Source: a virus
Direction: 5' to 3' (one strand)
DNA: 34,597 nucleotides
UHGV virus genome: UHGV-0102868
Below, piece after piece: positions 3,326 through 15,835 of this stretch. The notes beneath the pieces are model-generated. The model did not search any database. It saw only the letters and a list, made by a program, of their open reading frames with translations, and was not told the origin of the DNA. Numbering within the stretch: position 1 is the first letter of the stretch; each line of letters opens with the position of its first letter. A program made the position numbers and the translations under genes.

Positions 3326-3818
3326 TTACCAGGCACTGCGAATGGCGGCAGAAAATGCAACACCAGGCGAATGGTGTACTGATGACTACTATGGGGTAAT
3401 TGCTGATGCCGGACTGAATGGCAATTACTACATAGCATTATGCGCAGGACCAGATAAGCGCGCCAATAAGCGATTCATAGCCGCAGCCAATCCGGCTGCT
3501 GTGCTGGCATTACTGGATGAACTGGAAGCAGCAAAAAAGCGCATTGCAGAACTGGAAGCACGGGAAATAAAACCAGCCAAAGGCGAAGTTCTTGTCGTTG
3601 TATCTGGTTTTACTGGTTGCGGAAAAAGCGCCATTGCCGGGGAAATAGAAATCGCGATGAAGGCTATTGGTGTGCCGGTTAAGTGGACTAATGGCGATGC
3701 AGAAAAGCGCATGACCGGCGCTGACTGGCTGACAGCAATTGAGATGTACAAACCAACTGTGCGCATTGTGGAAGTTAATGTGCCACGCGTCGCTGGCGTT
3801 CGCATCAAAGGAGAGTGA
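3312..3818 (+). CDS. Ead/Ea22-like phage protein
   Basis: GTG start at 3312 inside the second copy of the GGAGGCAACCAGTGAGC junction motif; the N-terminus (SEINYQALR...) resembles Ead/Ea22-like prophage proteins as I remember them. The ORF-track start at 3228 would lie inside the upstream gene. Confidence 0.55.
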   Translation: MSEINYQALRMAAENATPGEWCTDDYYGVIADAGLNGNYYIALCAGPDKRANKRFIAAANPAAVLALLDELEAAKKRIAELEAREIKPAKGEVLVVVSGFTGCGKSAIAGEIEIAMKAIGVPVKWTNGDAEKRMTGADWLTAIEMYKPTVRIVEVNVPRVAGVRIKGE

Positions 3819-3819
3819 C

Positions 3820-4176
3820 GTGGAAATAAAACCAGAAGATGAGTTAAGTAATATTGTTTTATTTCCGGTAAAAGAGGATGACCCACGTAATCAGGTTAAT
3901 TTTCTTTATGAGCCATCGGAAAGACCATATTGCCATCACGCTTCTGTTCGGGTTGATGAAAAAGAGCGTCAGGTCCGCTGTAAAATCTGCGGTGCAGTTG
4001 TGGAGCCGTTTGACTGGATGCTCTCTGTGGCGAAAAGAGAAACCAGACTGGCAGATGATGTAAGGCTATTGCGTCAGGAGGAACGGGAAAGGCGGAAAAA
4101 TATAGAAAAGTTAATTCAGATTGAGCGTAACGCGAAAGCGCGGATACGCAGGGTGACAAAATCCAGAACTGAATAA
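3820..4176 (+). CDS. hypothetical protein with Cys/His zinc-finger-like motif
   Basis: GTG at 3820, 1 nt after the upstream stop; contains CHH...(14)...CKIC; basic coiled C-terminus. Confidence 0.45.
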   Translation: MEIKPEDELSNIVLFPVKEDDPRNQVNFLYEPSERPYCHHASVRVDEKERQVRCKICGAVVEPFDWMLSVAKRETRLADDVRLLRQEERERRKNIEKLIQIERNAKARIRRVTKSRTE

Positions 4177-4447
4177 TTAAATTTAGCACGGTTAAAAATT
4201 TAATCCTTTACCGGAGGGATTTCTGCACCCTCAGAACATCAGGAGGCCGTCTGAAAGGGCGGAACAGATAATGCTTACGTTGAAACATTTTATCGACATA
4301 CCAACATGGTTAGCCGTCATTGCTTTTGTTAAAATACACATCCACTTTTCTGTGCAATGTTTAACCACTGGTCATATCAAATGGCATTCATGCGAACCAT
4401 GATATAGAATCATGGCTTGAGAGAGTCGATGAAAGCGCAACTATGGT

Positions 4448-5026
4448 ATGAGAGACATTGATGTAAGAAAGGCTGTGCATGCCAAGATTCTGAGAGATCA
4501 TCATAAAGATCCTGACACCCTAATCATTGATGAGTTTACGATGAATCTAGGGGCTAGCAGAGCTGATATAGCAGTGATCAATGGGCTTATACATGGTTAT
4601 GAGTTGAAGAGCAAGAGTGATAACTTGCTCAGATTACCAGCGCAGGTGCAACATTACTCATCAGTGATGGATAAAGTAACTTTGGTTGTCTCTGATTGCC
4701 ATCTTTATGATGCTTTAAGCATAGTTCCATCATGGTGGGGGATAAAGCAAGTTACGCAAGGTGCACGGCAAGGTATCCATTTAAAAACAATTCGAACTAG
4801 CAAGTTGAATCCACAAGTGGACAAACTTTCCTTAACAATGCTTCTTTGGAAAGATGAATTGCTTTCCCTATTAAGTGATGTAGGGGAGCTACAGAATTTG
4901 AAAAATAAACCTAAACGCGTCTTATGGTCAAAACTCGCCAATAGTATGGATGTTGGCGAGCTTCGTGAAGCTGTTCGAGTTAAACTTAAAGCCCGTAAAG
5001 AGTGGCGAGTTGCTCAACAACCTTAG
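4448..5026 (+). CDS. uncharacterised protein, possible PD-(D/E)xK nuclease-fold (ORF-A)
   Basis: 192-aa ORF in visibly AT-rich DNA. Translation has D28/E29, D40 and E52-x-K54 (IIDEF ... RADIAVI ... YELKS), spaced like a restriction-endonuclease-type active site. An extended -10-like TGTTAAAAT lies upstream (4327-4335). Confidence 0.6.
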   Translation: MRDIDVRKAVHAKILRDHHKDPDTLIIDEFTMNLGASRADIAVINGLIHGYELKSKSDNLLRLPAQVQHYSSVMDKVTLVVSDCHLYDALSIVPSWWGIKQVTQGARQGIHLKTIRTSKLNPQVDKLSLTMLLWKDELLSLLSDVGELQNLKNKPKRVLWSKLANSMDVGELREAVRVKLKARKEWRVAQQP

Positions 5027-6083
5027 TTATGTGATGGTTTTGCCCAATCCTACGCCATACCTCTGGGCTACCAAATTTATAGTTACCAGAGGGATTGGCT
5101 TTGTAGGCTTGATACTCGTTTGCATAATATTCTATGTCTCTATCTCCCGCACAGAATGTAGGCCCTGAATATTCTCGATGAGCAAGAATATCCTCACTAT
5201 GTTTACCATATTGTTCATAACCAAAGCGATTAGCTACTCTTCCTCGAAATACCCAAAAGTCATTATCTCCAGAGTATCTGACGCTGGCAGATACGCTAGG
5301 GAATCGCGTCGAAAGCCTATTAAAGTCGGGGTGCTGTACTCCATAATCACTATAAATCACATTTCTGGCAAGTTCTTTTCTATTCATTAAACTCTGCCAT
5401 AAAATCCACTCGATTCGAGGTTGAGAATATAGACCAACAGAAATATCACTGAGATCTGTAGGAAATGAACCCCCAGAAAGAATCACTTTTCTGTATTCAT
5501 TGAGGTGCGCCAGATTGTTTATCAATCCCATTGCCAAAGTATATAGTTCGCCGGAATTAAGTTTATCCTCGGTTAACTCATCTCTTAAGTCAATAATTAT
5601 ATCAATATTTGATAAAGGAATTCCTAGATGATTAATGTAATGCGTTATTAATTGTGGGTTAACCAGATCTAACGTGGTTAATCTCAAGCATATTTCATTC
5701 TGCATTAATTCATCAATCGCTCTTTTATAGTTAGATGGGCGAGTTGGTGAACTGACAGGAATAACTCTTATCCCCATATCTCTAACTTGATTAACCGCAT
5801 TTATTATAGGGTAATGATCTTCAGGAGAAATAAAATGCTCTTCAATTAATAATCCATCAATATAAACACCTTGCATATCTGAGCAAGATTTTGAGACTTT
5901 CTTTCCGAACTCTATAAGAGTCTCGTTATAACTCTTTAAGGCAATACCTGAATCAGGGTCAATTGGCACTGGTTCAATTTCGAGTAATGGCAAAATTTTT
6001 GATTTCTTTTCAATGGATAGCTGCGATAAAGCTGATAACTCAGAACGTTTCGCTTTCAGAATAGGAATATATGAAATTGCCAT
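4986..6083 (-). CDS. uncharacterised 365-aa protein (ORF-B), convergent partner of ORF-A
   Basis: Long uninterrupted minus-strand ORF, the only convincing minus-strand gene in the window. AT-rich. Its 3' end overlaps the ORF-A 3' end by 41 bp. No motif I can name with confidence. Confidence 0.7.
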   Translation of the reverse strand: MAISYIPILKAKRSELSALSQLSIEKKSKILPLLEIEPVPIDPDSGIALKSYNETLIEFGKKVSKSCSDMQGVYIDGLLIEEHFISPEDHYPIINAVNQVRDMGIRVIPVSSPTRPSNYKRAIDELMQNEICLRLTTLDLVNPQLITHYINHLGIPLSNIDIIIDLRDELTEDKLNSGELYTLAMGLINNLAHLNEYRKVILSGGSFPTDLSDISVGLYSQPRIEWILWQSLMNRKELARNVIYSDYGVQHPDFNRLSTRFPSVSASVRYSGDNDFWVFRGRVANRFGYEQYGKHSEDILAHREYSGPTFCAGDRDIEYYANEYQAYKANPSGNYKFGSPEVWRRIGQNHHITKVVEQLATLYGL

Positions 6084-6435
6084 GTTAATACCTTATACAG
6101 AATCAATTAACAATTAATGGTTCTTCGGACATTGAAATTTATATCGCAAAAATTGGCAAACTCTCCTCGACTACTCACTTGTGGGTATCCTGGCGTAAAA
6201 GGAATGACTTGGCAATACCCGGTGTGATCATAAGTCATTGAAAATGATCATTTTTATCAGTCTTTCTTCCATGATGAATGCTAATGCCATTTGATTTGTT
6301 GAGGTAAAAACTGTTAAAAATCAAAACGATGTAATTGAAATGAACGTTCGGTAGCATTCACGCTTTAAATGTTTCTTTTGTGCTGATTGGATGAATTTTG
6401 GTCACTTATGATGAGAGATGTTGCAGGAAAAGAAG

Positions 6436-6464
6436 TTGGCATTGATCTATTGGATAGTTAGAAT
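6436..6464 (+). promoter_or_regulatory. candidate sigma70 promoter of the hok mRNA
   Basis: -35 TTGGCA (6436-6441), 17-nt spacer, -10 TAGAAT (6459-6464). The predicted start near 6471 coincides with the 5' element that pairs with the mRNA 3' end. Confidence 0.55.
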
Positions 6465-6639
6465 TGCTGCGGGTGCTTGAGGCTATCTGCCTCAGGCATG
6501 AACACCAAAGGCAGATAGAGAAAAGCCCCAGTTAACATTACGCGTCCTGCAAGACGCTTAACATTAATCTGAGGCTCAATCCATGCTGAACACATGTAGG
6601 TTAGCCTCTTACGTGCCGAAAGGCAAGGAGAAGCAGGCT

Positions 6640-6795
6640 ATGAAGCAGCAAAAGGCGATGTTAATCGCCCTGATCGTCATCTGTTTAACCATCATTGTGA
6701 CGGCACTGGTAACGAGGAAAGACCTCTGCGAGGTACGAATCCGAACCGGCCAGACGGAGGTCGCTGTCTTCACAGCTTACGAACCTGAGGAGTAA
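6640..6795 (+). CDS. hok: Hok/Gef-family type I toxin
   Basis: 51-aa product MKQQKAMLIALIVICLTIIVTALVTRKDLCEVRIRTGQTEVAVFTAYEPEE is a typical Hok/Gef membrane toxin (closest in my memory to HokD/RelF). RBS AAGGAG at 6624-6629. Confidence 0.85.
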   Translation: MKQQKAMLIALIVICLTIIVTALVTRKDLCEVRIRTGQTEVAVFTAYEPEE

Positions 6796-6860
6796 GAGAC
6801 CAGGCGGGGTAAACCCCCGCCACCTCTGATGTGTCAGGCATCCTCAACGCACCCGCACTT

Positions 6861-6884
6861 AACCCGCCTTGGCGGGTTTTTTTG
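6861..6884 (+). terminator. rho-independent terminator at the 3' end of the hok mRNA
   Basis: GC hairpin CCCGC-cttg-GCGGG followed by a T7 run. Confidence 0.6.
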
Positions 6885-7025
6885 TAATTGATAAAAAAAT
6901 TAACCAAAATGGTTTACATAAAATTCCTTTATGGTAAATTGATTCGCATGTAAGGGGGGAGCACACTACCGATCATACCCTCAACGAGCGCGCTCTATTA
7001 CTGACACTAAACTGAGGAATTACCT

Positions 7026-7379
7026 ATGGCACTCACTGAATTCGGTAAGGCCGTGAGAAAAGCGAGAATTGATACAGGTTATACACTTCTTACCATGGCA
7101 AAAGCATTGGGCACCACACCAGCTTTCTTGAGTGGGCTTGAAACTGGAGCAAAAAAGATTCCAGCAAAATGGGTTACGGCAATAAATGATTTACTTGCTG
7201 AGCAAGGGTACAAAATTGAAAACCTGGATTTGTTAGCCAATATTTCAAATGAGTCAATACCTGTTGAAGGTTTACCCTTGCAGCAACAGATGTTGGTTGC
7301 AGGATTTGCTAAATCAGAATTCACACATGAAGAATTGAAAAAGTTCGCTGAGCTTTTAGCGGAAATCAATAAGAAATAA
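7026..7379 (+). CDS. XRE-family helix-turn-helix transcriptional regulator
   Basis: N-terminal HTH-like segment (TGYTLLTMAKALGTTPAFLSGLETG); RBS GAGGA 7 nt upstream; the next gene starts 16 nt after its stop. Confidence 0.75.
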   Translation: MALTEFGKAVRKARIDTGYTLLTMAKALGTTPAFLSGLETGAKKIPAKWVTAINDLLAEQGYKIENLDLLANISNESIPVEGLPLQQQMLVAGFAKSEFTHEELKKFAELLAEINKK

Positions 7380-7395
7380 TTTTGGGGCCAATTTT

Positions 7396-7878
7396 ATGTA
7401 TCAAATGCGAGGGACAAGAGTCCAGCCATTAACCGAAATTGACATCAAAAACAAAGCTATAAATGCCTGTTTTGCTTTGGGATTTACAAGCAAGTATAAA
7501 TACCGTAGGCGTCCGAAGAGATTTGATATTGCTTTAGAAAAGCTGTCAGAGTGGAATATTGTTTTGGAGCCTATTGATGAGGCTGATTGGCTGGGACTTA
7601 CTCTTGGCTTAACCATTGGACATTGTGAGCCAGAGACATTGACAATAAGAGTGCCAAACCATATTTATGAAATGGCTTGTGCAGGAGAACGTAGTGCTTT
7701 ATTTGTTGTTTTTCATGAGTTAGGTCATTTGCTTCTTCAGCATAAACCAGCACTGCATTTTTCAAATACCCCACCGGAGCAAAACGAAGACTCTGAGTGG
7801 CAGGCTGATTTATTTGCAGATGTGATGTTGGAAAAATTAGGATATGAAACAGCACAACTTTGCTTCGATTTTTATTAA
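7396..7878 (+). CDS. ImmA/IrrE-family Zn metallopeptidase (HEXXH)
   Basis: Translation contains FHELGHLLLQH (HEXXH) in a 160-aa protein directly downstream of an XRE HTH gene, the usual ImmR/ImmA-type arrangement. Confidence 0.75.
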   Translation: MYQMRGTRVQPLTEIDIKNKAINACFALGFTSKYKYRRRPKRFDIALEKLSEWNIVLEPIDEADWLGLTLGLTIGHCEPETLTIRVPNHIYEMACAGERSALFVVFHELGHLLLQHKPALHFSNTPPEQNEDSEWQADLFADVMLEKLGYETAQLCFDFY

Positions 7879-8000
7879 AAAGCCCTGCAATAGCAGGGCT
7901 TAGATTCGGAAAGCCTAGGAAACTTTCCTGTGTATGATGGAGATCCCCACCGCTACACTTAGAATTGACAGAAGTGAGTCTAGCGGTTCTCTCAATAAAT

Positions 8001-8028
8001 TGCAACCTGTATGGGGATACAGGTTGCA
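8001..8028 (+). repeat. perfect 12-bp inverted repeat with a 4-nt GGGG loop
   Basis: TGCAACCTGTAT-GGGG-ATACAGGTTGCA read directly; it sits just upstream of the RBS and start of the small Zn-ribbon ORF. Confidence 0.7.
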
Positions 8029-8044
8029 GGGAGATGCTGTTGTT

Positions 8045-8194
8045 ATGGCTATGAAAACTTGTAAGAAATGTGGGAAACCGTGTGAAATTATTTTTCGTTA
8101 CTCTGCCTGTATCAACGGAGTTATGCGGTATGCGAGAAAAGGGCATCCTTTTCCGATTCCTGTCTGCGATTGCTCTGAACTTGGTGTCGCATAA
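8045..8194 (+). CDS. small Cys-rich (zinc-ribbon-like) protein, 49 aa
   Basis: ATG 8045 with RBS GGGAGA (8030-8035); CKKCGKPC ... CDC motifs; followed by a terminator. The ORF-track start at 7934 would read through the inverted repeat. Confidence 0.4.
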   Translation: MAMKTCKKCGKPCEIIFRYSACINGVMRYARKGHPFPIPVCDCSELGVA

Positions 8195-8202
8195 TGATCT
8201 AA

Positions 8203-8226
8203 AACCCGCTTTGGCGGGTTTTTTAC
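8203..8226 (+). terminator. rho-independent terminator closing the accessory island
   Basis: CCCGC-tttg-GCGGG hairpin followed by TTTTTT. Confidence 0.55.
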
Positions 8227-8386
8227 TTTTACAGATCAAGTTTTAGCCGATTCCTCCATTAAACCGACCTTCGTTTGTTGATAAGCGGGTATGCCTGACT
8301 AGAATCGATTCACTTAAGTAGCGCGCAGGGAGAAGAGGGATGGACCCCGAGCAGGGGAGTGCTATTTATCTGGAAGGATTCTGTTG

Positions 8387-8560
8387 ATGAAAATCGAAGA
8401 ATTGCGTGAAATTTTTAGTGAAAATGGCCTCTATGCTGTGCGCGTTGAGAATGGAGACGTTATCTACACAACGTTAATTCCTGATGATCATGTGATTTTA
8501 TCTATCGAGGCATTCATTGAATATCTGGAAAGGCTCGGTTTCAAGGTGGTTCGGGAATGA
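8387..8560 (+). CDS. small hypothetical protein (57 aa), absent from the ORF track
   Basis: ATG 8387 with RBS GGAAGGA 9 nt upstream; 57 sense codons ending TGA 8558-8560. Confidence 0.35.
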   Translation: MKIEELREIFSENGLYAVRVENGDVIYTTLIPDDHVILSIEAFIEYLERLGFKVVRE

Positions 8561-10374: not shown

Positions 10375-10450
<76 letters not shown>

Positions 10451-10453
10451 TAT

Positions 10454-10528
<75 letters not shown>

Positions 10529-12526: not shown

Positions 12527-13984
12527 ATGAATACATCTCATGTAAGAGTTGTTACTCATATGTGTGGGTTCCTGGTTTGGCTCTATAGTCTTTCAATGTT
12601 GCCACCAATGGTTGTAGCATTGTTTTATAAAGAAAAAAGCCTGTTCGTTTTCTTTATAACTTTCGTTATATTTTTTTGCATTGGTGGCGGAGCGTGGTAT
12701 ACAACTAAGAAATCTGGCATTCAATTACGTACCCGTGATGGGTTTATTATAATTGTAATGTTTTGGATTTTGTTTTCTGTTATTAGTGCATTCCCTTTAT
12801 GGATTGACTCAGAACTTAATTTAACGTTCATTGATGCTCTGTTTGAAGGGGTTTCTGGAATAACAACAACAGGAGCAACTGTAATTGATGATGTTAGTTC
12901 ATTACCTCGGGCATATTTGTACTATCGGTCACAGTTAAATTTTATTGGTGGTTTAGGAGTTATTGTTCTGGCGGTTGCTGTATTGCCATTATTGGGTATT
13001 GGTGGTGCAAAGCTTTATCAGTCAGAAATGCCGGGGCCATTTAAGGATGACAAACTCACTCCCCGCCTGGCCGATACGTCACGGACACTGTGGATAACTT
13101 ATTCTTTATTAGGTATTGCTTGTATTGTCTGTTATAGACTTGCAGGAATGCCTTTGTTTGATGCTATTTGTCACGGGATTTCCACAGTTTCGCTTGGTGG
13201 TTTCTCAACTCATAGCGAGAGTATCGGATATTTTAATAACTATTTGGTTGAGCTGGTGGCTGGTTCTTTTTCCCTGCTATCGGCTTTCAACTTCACTCTT
13301 TGGTATATTGTTATTAGCAGGAAAACGATAAAACCTTTAATCAGAGATATTGAACTTCGTTTCTTTCTGTTAATAGCCTTAGGGGTGATCATTGTTACCT
13401 CTTTCCAGGTCTGGCATATAGGTATGTATGACTTGCATGGAAGTTTTATTCATTCGTTTTTTCTTGCCAGCTCCATGCTCACTGATAATGGTTTAGCTAC
13501 GCAGGATTATGCAAACTGGCCCACGCACACGATAGTGTTTTTGCTGTCGTCAAGTTTCTTTGGGGGATGTATAGGTTCAACTTGTGGTGGAATTAAGTCA
13601 CTTCGATTTCTTATACTTTTCAAACAAAGCAAACACGAGATAAATCAGCTTTCTCATCCCAGAGCGTTGTTGAGTGTAAATGTAGGAGGGAAGATAGTTA
13701 CAGATCGTGTAATGAGGTCTGTATGGAGTTTCTTTTTTCTTTATACTCTCTTCACGGTGTTTTTTATACTGGTGTTAAATGGTATGGGATATGATTTTCT
13801 TACATCATTTGCAACAGTGGCTGCATGTATTAATAATATGGGATTAGGTTTTGGGGCTACTGCATCGTCATTCGGAGTGCTTAATGACATTGCAAAATAT
13901 TTAATGTGCATAGCTATGATTCTTGGTCGCCTTGAAATTTATCCTGTTATTATATTGTTTTCAGGTTTTTTTTGGCGCTCCTAA
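12527..13984 (+). CDS. trkG: TrkH/TrkG-family potassium uptake transporter (moron)
   Basis: Polytopic membrane protein with repeated selectivity-filter-like glycine motifs (SGITTTGATV, IGGLGVIVL, STCGGIKSL), as in TrkH/TrkG; AT-rich. Alternative TTG start at 12509 behind SD AAGGTGG. Confidence 0.85.
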   Translation: MNTSHVRVVTHMCGFLVWLYSLSMLPPMVVALFYKEKSLFVFFITFVIFFCIGGGAWYTTKKSGIQLRTRDGFIIIVMFWILFSVISAFPLWIDSELNLTFIDALFEGVSGITTTGATVIDDVSSLPRAYLYYRSQLNFIGGLGVIVLAVAVLPLLGIGGAKLYQSEMPGPFKDDKLTPRLADTSRTLWITYSLLGIACIVCYRLAGMPLFDAICHGISTVSLGGFSTHSESIGYFNNYLVELVAGSFSLLSAFNFTLWYIVISRKTIKPLIRDIELRFFLLIALGVIIVTSFQVWHIGMYDLHGSFIHSFFLASSMLTDNGLATQDYANWPTHTIVFLLSSSFFGGCIGSTCGGIKSLRFLILFKQSKHEINQLSHPRALLSVNVGGKIVTDRVMRSVWSFFFLYTLFTVFFILVLNGMGYDFLTSFATVAACINNMGLGFGATASSFGVLNDIAKYLMCIAMILGRLEIYPVIILFSGFFWRS

Positions 13985-14121: not shown

Positions 14122-14910
14122 ATGAGCGAGAAATTAAAGATAGTCTATCGCCCATTACAAGAATTGTCACCGTATGCGCACAACGCCAGGACGCACAGTA
14201 CTGAGCAGGTGGCACAACTGGTAGAAAGTATTAAGCAATTCGGCTGGACTAATCCGGTGCTGATTGACGAAAAGGGCGAAATTATTGCGGGTCACGGTCG
14301 TGTTATGGCGGCTGAAATGCTCAAAATGGATTCTGTTCCGGTCATTGTTCTGTCTGGCCTGACGGATGATCAGAAAAAGGCGTACCGCCTGGCAGATAAT
14401 CGCCTACCGATGAATGCTGGCTGGGATGAAGATCTGTTGCGGATGGAGCTGTCGGACCTAATCAATGCTGATTTTGATGTCTCCCTGACAGGCTTCGGCC
14501 CGACAGAAATTGATGAACTGTTGACGGATGTTTTGCCCGGTACAGGAAATAAGAAGGAGCCGTATACGACGAAAATTGATACGCCTGTTTATGAGCCGTC
14601 GGGCGGTAAACCGGATATCAGTGAACTGTACGACGATACGAAAACTCAGGAGCTGATCAGCCGGATACGTTCGGCGTCCCTTGATCCTGATATTGAGAAA
14701 TTCCTCCTGTGTGCGGCAGAACGTCACACGGTGTTTAATTTCAGCAGAATTGCGGACTATTACGCTCATGCCCCCGCTGAAATTCAGTGCCTTTTCGAGG
14801 AGTCGGCGCTGGTGATCATTGATTATCAGCAGGCTATTGAAAATGGATTTGTCCGAATGACGCAGCGCATGGTGGCGATCATGCATAGCGGGGAGGAGGA
14901 ATATGCGTGA
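14122..14910 (+). CDS. ParB-like nuclease domain protein
   Basis: N-terminal ParB/sulfiredoxin-type signature (IIAGHGRVMAA, DNRLPMNAGWD); 120-aa C-terminal extension of unknown function; its stop overlaps the next start by 8 nt. Confidence 0.75.
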   Translation: MSEKLKIVYRPLQELSPYAHNARTHSTEQVAQLVESIKQFGWTNPVLIDEKGEIIAGHGRVMAAEMLKMDSVPVIVLSGLTDDQKKAYRLADNRLPMNAGWDEDLLRMELSDLINADFDVSLTGFGPTEIDELLTDVLPGTGNKKEPYTTKIDTPVYEPSGGKPDISELYDDTKTQELISRIRSASLDPDIEKFLLCAAERHTVFNFSRIADYYAHAPAEIQCLFEESALVIIDYQQAIENGFVRMTQRMVAIMHSGEEEYA

Positions 14911-15835
14911 TGATTTTTGCGCCTTTATTCTGACTCACGGGCGACCGGACAAAGTTCTGACTTACCGGACGTTGCGTCGTGCTGGCTATACCGGGAAAAT
15001 TTTTATCGTTGTTGATGATGAAGATAAGACACGGCATCAGTACATGGCTGAATTTGGTGAACAGGTGCTGGTATTTTCCAAAGCAGATATTGCCAGTCGT
15101 TTTGACGAAGCCGATAATTTTGGTGACCGCCGCTCAATTTTTTACGCCCGTAATGCCTGTTTCGACCTGGCAAAACTGGTCGGGTGTAAATACTTCATTC
15201 AGCTCGATGATGATTATCACGAGTTCCAGTTTCGGGTGGATCGCAACTATGACCAGGCCTATTTCCCGATAAGGAAACTGGATGCGATCCTTTCTGAAAT
15301 GCTGGCGTATTACGAATCAATACCCGCGCTTTCCATCGCTATGTCGCAGGGCGGGGATTTTCTTGGTGACAATGGCGGCCATGCTTCGTGGGTGAAACGC
15401 AAGGCAATGAACAGCTTTATCTGTTCGGTTGATCGACCGTTCTCATTCATGGGGCGCATTAACGAGGATGTGAATACGTACACGAATCTCGGTCGCCGTG
15501 GTGAATTGTTTATGACGATCGGTGCTGTCCAGTTAGGGCAGAAACAGACGCAGAAAAACAGCGGCGGAATGACCGAGCTGTATCTGGATTCCGGGACCTA
15601 CGTTAAAAGTTTTTATTCCGTCATGTATGCGCCGTCGTGCGTAAAAATCTCACTGATGGGCGCCAGCCATAAACGCATTCACCATCAGGTCACCTGGAAC
15701 AACGCTGCAGTAAAAATCCTTCACGAAAAATACAGGAAGAAGACACCCTGCATATTAATGGGGGTGACAAATGATTCCGTATTCGAAAGTCGAGTCTCTG
15801 GCAGCGTGCCGGATGACTGCACAACAAATCGCTGA
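14903..15835 (+). CDS. GT-A-fold glycosyltransferase-like protein (DxD motif)
   Basis: Strong RBS GGAGGAGGA; spacing of beta1 (CAFILTHGRPD), beta2 (KIFIVVDDEDKT) and DxD (YFIQLDDDYH) matches GT-A nucleotide-sugar transferases by eye; translationally coupled to the ParB-like gene. Confidence 0.6.
   Translation: MRDDFCAFILTHGRPDKVLTYRTLRRAGYTGKIFIVVDDEDKTRHQYMAEFGEQVLVFSKADIASRFDEADNFGDRRSIFYARNACFDLAKLVGCKYFIQLDDDYHEFQFRVDRNYDQAYFPIRKLDAILSEMLAYYESIPALSIAMSQGGDFLGDNGGHASWVKRKAMNSFICSVDRPFSFMGRINEDVNTYTNLGRRGELFMTIGAVQLGQKQTQKNSGGMTELYLDSGTYVKSFYSVMYAPSCVKISLMGASHKRIHHQVTWNNAAVKILHEKYRKKTPCILMGVTNDSVFESRVSGSVPDDCTTNR

Follow-up and report, generated by a model that had tools for sequence, protein, structure and literature searches.

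The viral genome UHGV-0102868 (34,597 nucleotides, referred to as the window) comes from Escherichia and is a lambdoid prophage of the Rac type; over 15.9 kb it shares 99.94% identity with a contig of an E. coli draft assembly. The subject of this analysis is the interval at positions 4180–8250, located between its early genes and its nin-type genes. The surrounding gene order is common to the window, the O55:H7 strain DEC5E and phage Rac-SA53, and comprises a ydaS/ydaT-like switch, replication genes, DUF1627, DUF977 and Ead/Ea22, followed by the interval and then by rem, DUF1367, YbcO, DUF1133 (Q-like) and the lysis genes. The left flank is formed by the last conserved early (ea-type) gene, which encodes 118 residues (3820–4176, plus strand; phrog_1621, 1.4e-55), and the first conserved gene on the right is rem (57 residues; 8387–8560, plus strand; precomputed PF27490 match), followed by DUF1367 (Pfam, 6.3e-98), YbcO and DUF1133. 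Within the interval lie a convergent gene pair related to beta and cII of P4, a hok/sok type I toxin–antitoxin locus, and a cassette made up of an XRE-family gene, an M78 peptidase gene, a structured RNA leader and a small zinc-ribbon protein gene. The favoured reading, which as a whole has a probability of roughly 65%, is that of a moron (accessory-gene) hotspot within the early-right part of the prophage, with two slots arranged around hok/sok, slot 1 being occupied by a gop-less beta/cII module and slot 2 by an XRE/M78-type switch cassette.

An earlier sequence-only reading of this DNA had described 4180–8250 as an AT-rich island, and its composition agrees. The guanine plus cytosine (GC) content is 0.403, compared with 0.507 in the left flank and 0.464 at 8251–31000, and among all 4071-bp windows (mean 0.464, standard deviation 0.028) the interval ranks third lowest of 611, essentially the lowest-GC 4-kb stretch, with the minimum at 4101. 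GC at third codon positions is 0.36 in ORF-A and 0.30 in ORF-B of the convergent pair, 0.34 in the XRE gene and 0.32 in the M78 gene, whilst the flanking early and nin-type genes have values of 0.42–0.52; the comparison of GC and codon usage that had been suggested as a check therefore sets the interval apart from its flanks. The AT-richness is uneven, and the hok locus (6461–6884), with a GC content of 0.526, forms the middle of a compositional sandwich. The open reading frames (ORFs), promoter-like sites and terminators named in the same reading were all found at their claimed coordinates, as judged from the ORF list, a scan and a check of the sequence.

The boundaries of the cargo were mapped by comparing the window with 31 related loci, fetched via exact matches to the M78, Hok and Rem proteins and by megablast, and by locating blastn breakpoints against the window. 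Across these loci homology breaks off or resumes sharply and recurrently at ~4262, 6459, 6881–6883 and 8201–8203. On the left, homology extends through a linker that folds into small hairpins (4169–4262) and stops at ~4262, the left junction of slot 1 (J1). The 118-aa gene before it precedes differing cargo in six of the related loci, and a 65–95-nt stretch of the linker (4169/4198–4262) recurs at 81–95% identity even in five loci that do not carry this gene; the linker may function as an RNA element or as a 'boundary sequence' for recombination. Homology to 27 loci then resumes exactly at 6459, which is the first base of the hok −10 hexamer, and stops again at 6881–6883, in the T-run of the hok terminator (J3). 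On the right, it resumes at 8201–8203 in relatives of the DUF1367 type and at 8292/8312 in another type. These breakpoints delimit slot 1 (4263–6458), which holds the gop-less beta/cII module with AT-rich non-coding flanks and is filled by other genes in most related loci, and slot 2 (6883–8202), which holds the XRE–M78–leader–zinc-ribbon cassette.

The right-hand slot is flanked by two terminators. The first copy (6861–6882, plus strand; terminator scan), at J3, and the second (8203–8224, plus strand), at J4, are identical at 21 of 22 positions, in agreement with the earlier description of two near-identical terminators. Empty sites of the same type hold a single copy that aligns to both copies in the window, where the two flank 1,342 bp; relative to such sites the window thus carries a clean insertion of this length, with the terminator duplicated at its ends. 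In one relative (locus L010), different cargo is located between the hok fold-back element and a single terminator.

The cargo itself varies between related loci. Loci selected for an exact copy of the Hok, Rem or M78 protein have at least 13 different sets of genes upstream of hok, and the region between hok and rem occurs in four states; the identical Rem protein was found behind ten different upstream contexts. Alternatives in slot 1 include a 257-aa minus-strand gene, RelB/ParE, a trio of a 388-aa protein, DUF4325 and a 172-aa protein (L106, 2202–4195), a pair of NA37 and a 406-aa protein, located on the opposite strand (L104, 1885–4240), QueH, DUF551 sets, HNH, ORF6N, and IS200 with an 816-aa protein, among others. 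Slot 2 is empty in most loci and otherwise holds the XRE–M78–zinc-ribbon cassette, a pair of a 289-aa PDC-S42-like protein and a 130-aa partner (L010, 3487–4993), or a pair of a 59-aa protein and Fic (L105, 4117–4800). Among the alternatives in L106, L104, L105 and L010, all but PDC-S42 are without PADLOC matches and may be untried systems.

The distribution of the two cargoes was assessed by megablast against 5,426 complete E. coli genomes, a search that misses homologues below ~85% identity. The beta/cII pair was found in 93 of these genomes, in 92 of them at 99% identity or more, and the XRE–M78–zinc-ribbon cassette in none, whilst a query spanning the interval and including the hok locus matched 4,728. 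The exact M78 protein is nevertheless present on 235 Escherichia contigs, and one member of its cluster is from E. albertii. The block is therefore not common to all relatives, and the condition that the sequence-only reading had named as refuting, the same block at this position in all of them, does not hold. That reading had also counted at least four separate cargo modules; the cargo does consist of self-contained units, but the units number three, namely two slots and a resident hok/sok module.

In slot 1, ORF-A (192 aa; 4448–5026, plus strand) belongs to the P4 cII/sce7726 family and has a PD-(D/E)xK nuclease-like core. It matches the NCBIfam model sce7726_fam (NF033832) over its full length (1.7e-56), the PADLOC model 'cll' (2.4e-28) and, as a precomputed assignment, PF26915, and it shares 28% identity with P4 cII (E 2e-17). 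Residues E29, D40, E52 and K54, which constitute the nuclease signature, are invariant across 40 cII-like homologues, and the AF2 model of the protein has a pLDDT of 93.7. An extended −10-like element, TGTTAAAAT (4327–4335, plus strand), is a candidate promoter for ORF-A; it was confirmed by a sequence check, has no good −35 and was not reported by the two-hexamer scan. ORF-B (365 aa; 4986–6083, minus strand) is a beta family protein (PF14350, 2.4e-52) that also matches two PADLOC PD-Lambda-2_C models (PDLC03983, 1.5e-41; PDLC03984, 4.1e-38) and, at just 2e-4, the PADLOC 'beta' model; it is 23% identical to P4 beta over its full length (E 1e-8). It is predicted to form a (β/α)8 TIM barrel (pLDDT 92.2) with invariant charged residues at or near the strand ends, and no specific structural relative of this model was found. 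Sequence searches for solved-structure relatives of ORF-A, ORF-B and the M78 peptidase likewise returned none.

The 3' ends of the two genes overlap by 41 nt (4986–5026). In P4 (NC_001609), gop and beta run rightward and cII leftward, so that beta and cII are also convergent, with a 27-nt gap that contains an annotated terminator. Convergent beta/cII genes with overlaps of 32–44 nt also occur in a P2-like prophage of Dickeya, in Paenibacillus (36% identity) and on a metagenomic contig (27% identity); the Dickeya copy is located between a gpA-like replication gene and a portal gene and adjoins a HicA/HicB pair. The conserved unit is thus the pair rather than the triplet, and phage Rac-SA53 already carries a beta/cII annotation for it. 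The presence of a gop in hidden or degenerate form was considered and rejected, as a tblastn search with P4 Gop against the whole window gave chance hits alone (E ≥ 2.1) and the 375 nt upstream of ORF-B hold just 40- and 43-aa ORFs. Small ORFs are present in both non-coding flanks of the module, a hydrophobic one of 43 aa upstream of ORF-A (4271–4402) and two of 40 and 43 aa with an ATGA overlap upstream of ORF-B (6107–6357, minus strand); they have no conserved counterparts in Dickeya and are probably spurious. At the beta/cII locus most remote from the window, the metagenomic one with 27% identity (L025/L026), a 200-aa gene without a Pfam match (3395–3997) abuts the beta start, in the place where P4 has gop, and may be an alternative toxin partner.

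Two experimentally characterised systems bear on the module. The gop-beta-cII system confers protection from phages lambda and P1, and its Gop protein is toxic when beta is missing (Rousset et al. 2022, PMC9122126); cell death through gop-beta-cII is triggered by a phage gene (bioRxiv 10.1101/2023.04.06.535777). In PD-lambda-2, the beta-like component PD-lambda-2C is needed for defence (Vassallo et al. 2022, PMC9519451). The literature yielded nothing on the function of sce7726 or beta proteins other than the work on P4 and PD-lambda-2 and genome annotations.

Between the two slots, the resident hok/sok module (6459–6882, plus strand) is 93–98% identical in 27 loci with differing neighbours (86% in one of them). 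Its mRNA leader/sok region (6471–6645, plus strand) matches Rfam RF01794 (118.1 bits; gathering score 59; E 1.5e-26), and mok (70 aa; 6583–6795, plus strand) is in the same frame as hok (51 aa; 6640–6795), with a HOK_GEF match in Pfam (3.1e-23) and phrog_251; both genes are annotated in Rac-SA53. Pairing between the 5' and 3' ends is a known trait of hok mRNAs, and the complementarity of GCGGGTGC (6469–6476) at the 5' end to GCACCCGC (6849–6856) fits it. The promoter-like sequence TTGGCA-17-TAGAAT found by the scan (6436–6464, plus strand) is suitably placed for an mRNA start at ~6471, and only its −10 is located inside the conserved module. Because the homology of 27 loci begins at the first base of the −10, the −35 is supplied by whichever cargo lies upstream. 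At the 3' end the scan places the terminator at 6861–6878. The locus is ordinary and apparently intact. The earlier listing of a hok-type toxin locus among the cargo was correct as to its identity, as all the expected parts of hok/sok are present, but the locus is not swapped cargo, since homology to the relatives starts exactly at its left edge.

The cassette in slot 2 begins with its own promoter, TTTACA-16-TGgTAAATT (hexamers TTTACA-16-TAAATT at 6913–6940, plus strand), overlapped at the −35 by the palindrome TTAACCAAAATGGTTTA (6900–6916), a candidate operator for the XRE protein. Both elements are conserved in homologues from E. coli, Klebsiella and viral contigs that have unrelated upstream neighbours, which is good evidence that the cassette is an autonomous transcription unit, probably autoregulated. 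The XRE-family protein (117 aa; 7026–7379, plus strand) consists of an N-terminal helix-turn-helix (HTH) domain and a C-terminal part of ~55 aa, and matches HTH_VI (2.3e-7) and capH (4.4e-4) in PADLOC. It is followed by an M78 (ImmA/IrrE-type) zinc peptidase (160 aa; 7396–7878, plus strand), named ImmA/IrrE family metallo-endopeptidase by NCBI, with matches to Pfam Peptidase_M78 (4.9e-6, over the cut-off), phrog_87 (1.3e-12) and PADLOC capP (1.1e-4). The zinc site, as read from the translation, is made up of H107-E108-L-G-H111 and E134, the latter in EWQADLFA. An XRE gene was detected directly upstream of the M78 gene in 73 of 75 viral loci, down to ~28% identity; in one exception the M78 gene starts at the contig end. 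Homologous cassettes often adjoin genes for DinI, SRAP/YedK, UmuDC, phage RecA and a UmuD-like S24 peptidase; such SOS-type neighbours occur in eight of the loci, including Klebsiella phage ST13-OXA48phi12.4. In the closest mechanistic models, ImmR/ImmA, DdrO/IrrE and CapH/CapP, DNA damage leads to cleavage of an XRE repressor by an M78 peptidase: IrrE cleaves DdrO (PMC12828697), and CapP/CapH respond to DNA damage (10.1101/2022.04.27.489752).

Downstream of the M78 gene is a conserved structured RNA leader of ~165 nt (7879–8044, plus strand), defined by alignments, RNAalifold and pair counts. It comprises four helices, namely the terminator-like H1 (7880–7901), H2 (7908–7928), the long-range helix P3 (7939–7943 and 7949–7955 paired with 7981–7987 and 7988–7992) and H4 (8001–8028), which stands directly before the Shine–Dalgarno (SD) sequence GGGAGA (8029–8034). 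H1, H2 and H4 recur in every homologue folded singly and P3 in most, and the sequence of H2 differs wholly between homologues yet always pairs. RNAalifold predicts 24 pairs, nine of them with compensatory changes; in the pair counts, 94.9% of cells are paired and there are nine doubly changed pairs, compared with 2.3 ± 1.2 in shuffled alignments (0 of 500 shuffles) and 0–5 in slid controls. Many of the G-U pairs fit the plus strand only, and the fold of the window leader has a z-score of −4.82 relative to shuffles. Rfam gave no match to the leader at gathering thresholds and nothing in the cassette region below E 0.34. The UCUCU at 7988–7992 pairs with an upstream GGAGA (7939–7943) in the consensus fold and with the SD in the centroid fold of the window, an alternative pairing that suggests, as a hypothesis only, a translational gate.

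The leader also accounts for the perfect inverted repeat at this position, whose 12-nt arms (8001–8012 and 8017–8028) form H4. A DNA operator or a minus-strand terminator at 8001–8028 is disfavoured, as the plus-strand G-U pairs and the place of the repeat in a conserved multi-helix fold favour an RNA hairpin; a protein-binding role may remain. An internal promoter for the zinc-ribbon gene (TGGAGA-16-TAGAAT, 7938–7965) is not favoured either, because its −10 is not conserved in homologues.

The last gene of the cassette encodes a 49-aa zinc-ribbon protein with the pattern C-x2-C ... C-x-C (8045–8194, plus strand) and is conserved as protein. All E. coli loci, two Klebsiella phages and 16 viral contigs encode a homologue of 47–49 aa, located 170–220 nt downstream of the stop codon of M78, and the ratio of nonsynonymous to synonymous substitution rates (dN/dS) against relatives is 0.05–0.10, indicative of purifying selection. 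The family has 12 representatives among 1.84 billion proteins and no Pfam or PHROG match. After more distant XRE–M78 pairs (M78 identity of ~41% or less) the gene was not found, save in one locus. A longer, 86-aa reading of the frame (7934–8194) was rejected, as conservation is absent from its first 37 codons, which overlap the leader, and the conserved start is at 8045. The zinc-ribbon ORF is co-inherited with the XRE and M78 genes and joined to them by the conserved structured RNA, and is thus part of one cassette. The XRE–peptidase pair and the small zinc-ribbon ORF behind a perfect inverted repeat, listed as separate modules by the sequence-only reading, are accordingly both present, the two genes of the pair being adjacent, but they constitute a single co-inherited unit in which the zinc-ribbon start is at 8045.

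Under the hotspot reading, cargo would be swapped as self-contained units between conserved junctions, namely the linker up to ~4262, the hok module (6459–6882) and the terminator (8203–8224) that leads into rem and the nin-type genes, most likely through recombination between co-infecting or co-resident lambdoid phages. The beta/cII pair, by analogy with P4 and PD-lambda-2, would most likely act as a toxin–antitoxin-like abortive-infection module, in which the nuclease-like ORF-A would be the effector and beta (ORF-B) its sensor or restrainer, with the expression of the two possibly coupled by convergent overlapping transcription. In slot 2, the XRE protein would repress its own promoter via the palindrome at 6900–6916; a stress signal, perhaps in the form of DNA damage, would cause the M78 peptidase to cleave XRE, and transcription would then read through a weak terminator into the structured leader, whose SD mimic, anti-SD and SD may gate translation of the 49-aa zinc-ribbon protein as the output. 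As to function, the 'moron' half of the earlier label 'defence / moron hotspot' is well founded in conserved flanks and many alternative cargoes, whilst the 'defence' half is plausible only. Matches to known or candidate defence models at the site comprise beta/cII (PADLOC cll and PD-Lambda-2_C), hok/sok, which a survey preprint counts as a defence system (Mok_Hok_Sok), and PDC-S42 in one relative; a defence role is likely in the case of slot 1 and possible in that of hok/sok, whilst slot 2 and most of the alternative cargoes may or may not have one.

Several observations weigh against the hotspot reading or parts of it. The two-hexamer scan found 15 promoter-like sites, compared with 11.1 ± 3.2 in shuffled sequences, which is within chance; consensus promoter matches alone consequently prove nothing, promoter enrichment was rejected as evidence, and the cassette promoter takes its backing only from conservation. 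The sample of loci is bait-biased, having been fetched via the M78, Hok or Rem proteins, so that frequencies within it are biased. In a PADLOC scan of ten alternative cargo proteins from relatives, eight had no match and the only system matched was PDC-S42 in L010, and for this reason 'defence hotspot' is a weaker description than 'accessory hotspot'. The best folds for ORF-A in the Protein Data Bank (PDB), SfsA, NucS/EndoMS and the Shedu nuclease SduA, are weak matches (E ~1e-2, TM ~0.35), so that the nuclease call depends chiefly on the motif. P4 cII owes its name to a lysogeny phenotype and not to defence, and the known P4 toxin, Gop, is absent here, so that ORF-A is at most a candidate for a toxic partner, if there is one. 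The Pfam matches of the XRE protein (HTH_3/HTH_31, 1.4e-4) fall under the curated cut-off, the SOS-type neighbours of cassette homologues may merely be other cargo in the same slot, and the covariation in the leader derives from 16 related sequences, with a shuffle control that is not a probability.

The alternative that survives best, though rather unlikely, is that the cargo serves the prophage life cycle and not defence, with the cII-like and beta proteins affecting lysogenisation or maintenance and the XRE–M78–zinc-ribbon cassette acting as an accessory switch for induction or anti-repression, through which the prophage or SOS-type cargo next to it would be coupled to DNA damage. Pairs of XRE and M78 proteins are a classical means by which mobile elements and DNA-damage regulons are induced (ImmR/ImmA, DdrO/IrrE), homologous cassettes stand beside DinI, YedK, UmuDC and RecA, both cargoes follow the replication genes within the early operon, and the scarcity of PADLOC matches at the site points the same way. 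The prophage, however, already owns a repressor, Cro and YdaT module, and both cargoes are dispensable, most relatives being without them. Furthermore, gop-beta-cII and PD-lambda-2, the sole assayed systems with beta-family proteins, are anti-phage, and in Dickeya the beta/cII pair adjoins a toxin–antitoxin pair in a P2-like prophage.

A second alternative, slightly more doubtful, treats the cassette as a three-component toxin–antitoxin system in which the zinc-ribbon protein is the toxin, XRE the antitoxin or repressor, and M78 the protease that degrades XRE to free the toxin, along the lines of the Xre-COG2856 scheme, RosmerTA and PD-lambda-2B. The M78 protein does match PADLOC RmrA (3.7e-4), and there is a match to the NCBIfam spr1629 antitoxin (2.4e-3), but these matches are weak and confined to the catalytic core. 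The Xre–peptidase fusion of PD-lambda-2 belongs to a toxin–antitoxin-like defence system, although it is the fusion itself that was the toxic part there. That the zinc-ribbon gene varies faster between cassettes (38–86% identity, compared with 79–83% for M78), and that slot 2 of relatives can hold a Fic gene with a small partner, would also suit a toxin; against this, the 49-aa protein is unlike any known toxin, and more distant XRE–M78 pairs lack the zinc-ribbon gene.

A single split PD-lambda-2-like system, with beta, XRE and M78 acting together across hok, is very improbable and was rejected. It is suggested by the composition of PD-lambda-2, which joins an Xre–M78 fusion with a beta-family protein, by the PD-Lambda-2_C match of ORF-B and by the location of the parts within 4 kb. 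The two cargoes are, however, inherited independently, as beta/cII occurs without the cassette in the 93 complete genomes and the cassette without beta/cII in six of the related loci and in Klebsiella phages; there is no HigB-like gene, XRE and M78 do not match PD-Lambda-2_B models, nor does anything match PD-Lambda-2_A, and separate promoters and terminators as well as the hok locus lie in between. Ordinary lambdoid mosaicism with decaying ORF remnants, which could appeal to the other low-GC patches in the window (12.5–14 kb and 26.5–27 kb) and to the chance-level promoter count, is just as improbable and already contradicted by intact ORFs with full-length family-model matches, by beta/cII at ≥99% identity in 92 genomes and the low dN/dS of the zinc-ribbon gene, and by sharp recurrent junctions with promoter, operator and RNA structure conserved across genera.

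Prophage moron and defence hotspots in general are well known, and the hotspot reading does not overturn current views; its modest novelty lies in the precise junctions, in a convergent beta/cII core that lacks gop and bears a nuclease signature, and in the XRE–M78–RNA–zinc-ribbon cassette. The junctions give a base-level map of a cargo exchange site in lambdoid prophages of the Rac type, a very common kind in E. coli, and J1–J4 could be used to harvest all cargo of the site from the pangenome, a cheap route to new toxin–antitoxin, defence and host-modifying genes. The beta/cII pair, and not gop, is the conserved core of a system that blocks lambda and P1, with the nuclease signature of the cII-like protein pointing to a candidate effector for gop-beta-cII and PD-lambda-2, and a small unclassified RNA element and a zinc-ribbon protein family are tied to a widespread XRE and M78 switch. 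A bolder and only tentative extension holds that slot 2 is an undescribed stress- or infection-responsive switch, in which XRE and M78 are coupled via the ~165-nt RNA to a new family of 47–49-aa zinc-ribbon proteins, and that gop-less beta/cII is the autonomous, phylum-spanning core of gop-beta-cII and PD-lambda-2, with the cII-like PD-(D/E)xK protein as the real effector. If so, the zinc-ribbon protein would be an effector, for example a regulator or inhibitor of a host or phage target, and the cassette would move between Escherichia and Klebsiella lambdoid prophages.

Elsewhere in the window, two adjacent tRNA genes (10375–10447 and 10454–10525; Rfam tRNA, 73.8 and 67.8 bits) are located downstream of the Q-like gene. 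A strongly T-skewed stretch of low GC (0.35–0.41) at ~12527–13984, after the lysis genes, corresponds to a gene for a K+ transporter of the TrkH family (485 aa), with coordinates mapped from the draft contig, which is 99.9% identical; the gene resembles trkG, the classical Rac cargo. Mapped from the same contig, ParB_N-domain and PF20691 (TAGT) genes follow the transporter gene at ~14122–15835 and may form a phage DNA-modification module. A separate low-GC patch (0.34) is present at 26501–27000, and the last 3.6 kb (31001–34597) have a GC content of 0.55–0.60, well over that of the rest of the window.

Compared with known sites, the interval resembles the P2/P4 hotspots (Rousset 2022) and lambdoid morons in its conserved flanks, many alternative cargoes, low GC and a promoter and terminator for each cargo unit. 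It differs in its location, with the replication/ea genes of a Rac-type lambdoid prophage on one side and rem/nin on the other, in the two slots split by hok/sok, and in the small share of recognisably defensive cargo. The hok locus itself has the Hok/Gef toxin, mok frame, sok/leader RNA and fold-back complementarity of hok/sok of plasmid R1, hokD of Qin and hok/mok of Rac-SA53 (KU052037), and in Rac-SA53 it occupies the same place next to rem; nothing notable sets it apart from these loci, and here it serves as the conserved anchor between two variable slots and takes its −35 from the neighbouring cargo.

With P4 gop-beta-cII, slot 1 shares convergently encoded beta-family and cII/sce7726-family proteins in a cargo hotspot of a temperate element, and P4 cII retains the D, E and K of the PD-(D/E)xK-like motif. 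In contrast to P4, gop is missing, identity is just 23% (beta) and 28% (cII), ORF-A has 192 residues compared with 264 in P4 cII, the genes overlap by 41 nt instead of being separated by a terminator, and the host element is a lambdoid prophage and not the P4 satellite. PD-lambda-2 is similar in that ORF-B is closest to its component C and that an XRE protein and an M78 peptidase are also near. It differs in that none of the six ORFs of the interval matches the HigB-like component A in Pfam, PADLOC or NCBIfam, that XRE and M78 are here separate genes of another transcription unit, inherited independently of beta and without a PD-Lambda-2_B match, and that a cII-like partner is present in the window.

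The slot 2 cassette is comparable to ImmR/ImmA (ICEBs1), DdrO/IrrE (Deinococcus) and the CBASS regulators CapH/CapP, with which it shares adjacent, co-oriented genes for a small XRE protein and an M78 peptidase with HEXXH, a palindrome at its own promoter and SOS-type genes often beside homologous cassettes. The similarity is limited to motifs (E 1e-4 to capH and capP), and the peptidase of the window, at 160 aa, is a minimal one in which no additional sensor domain can be recognised. Unlike those switches, it is accompanied in the window by no divergent immune operon or mobile-element excision genes, and whereas CapH/CapP regulate CBASS, no immune operon, CBASS or other, adjoins this pair, which is followed only by the zinc-ribbon gene. 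The apparent output, a 49-aa zinc-ribbon protein behind a structured leader, is a feature that sets the cassette apart from all of these systems.

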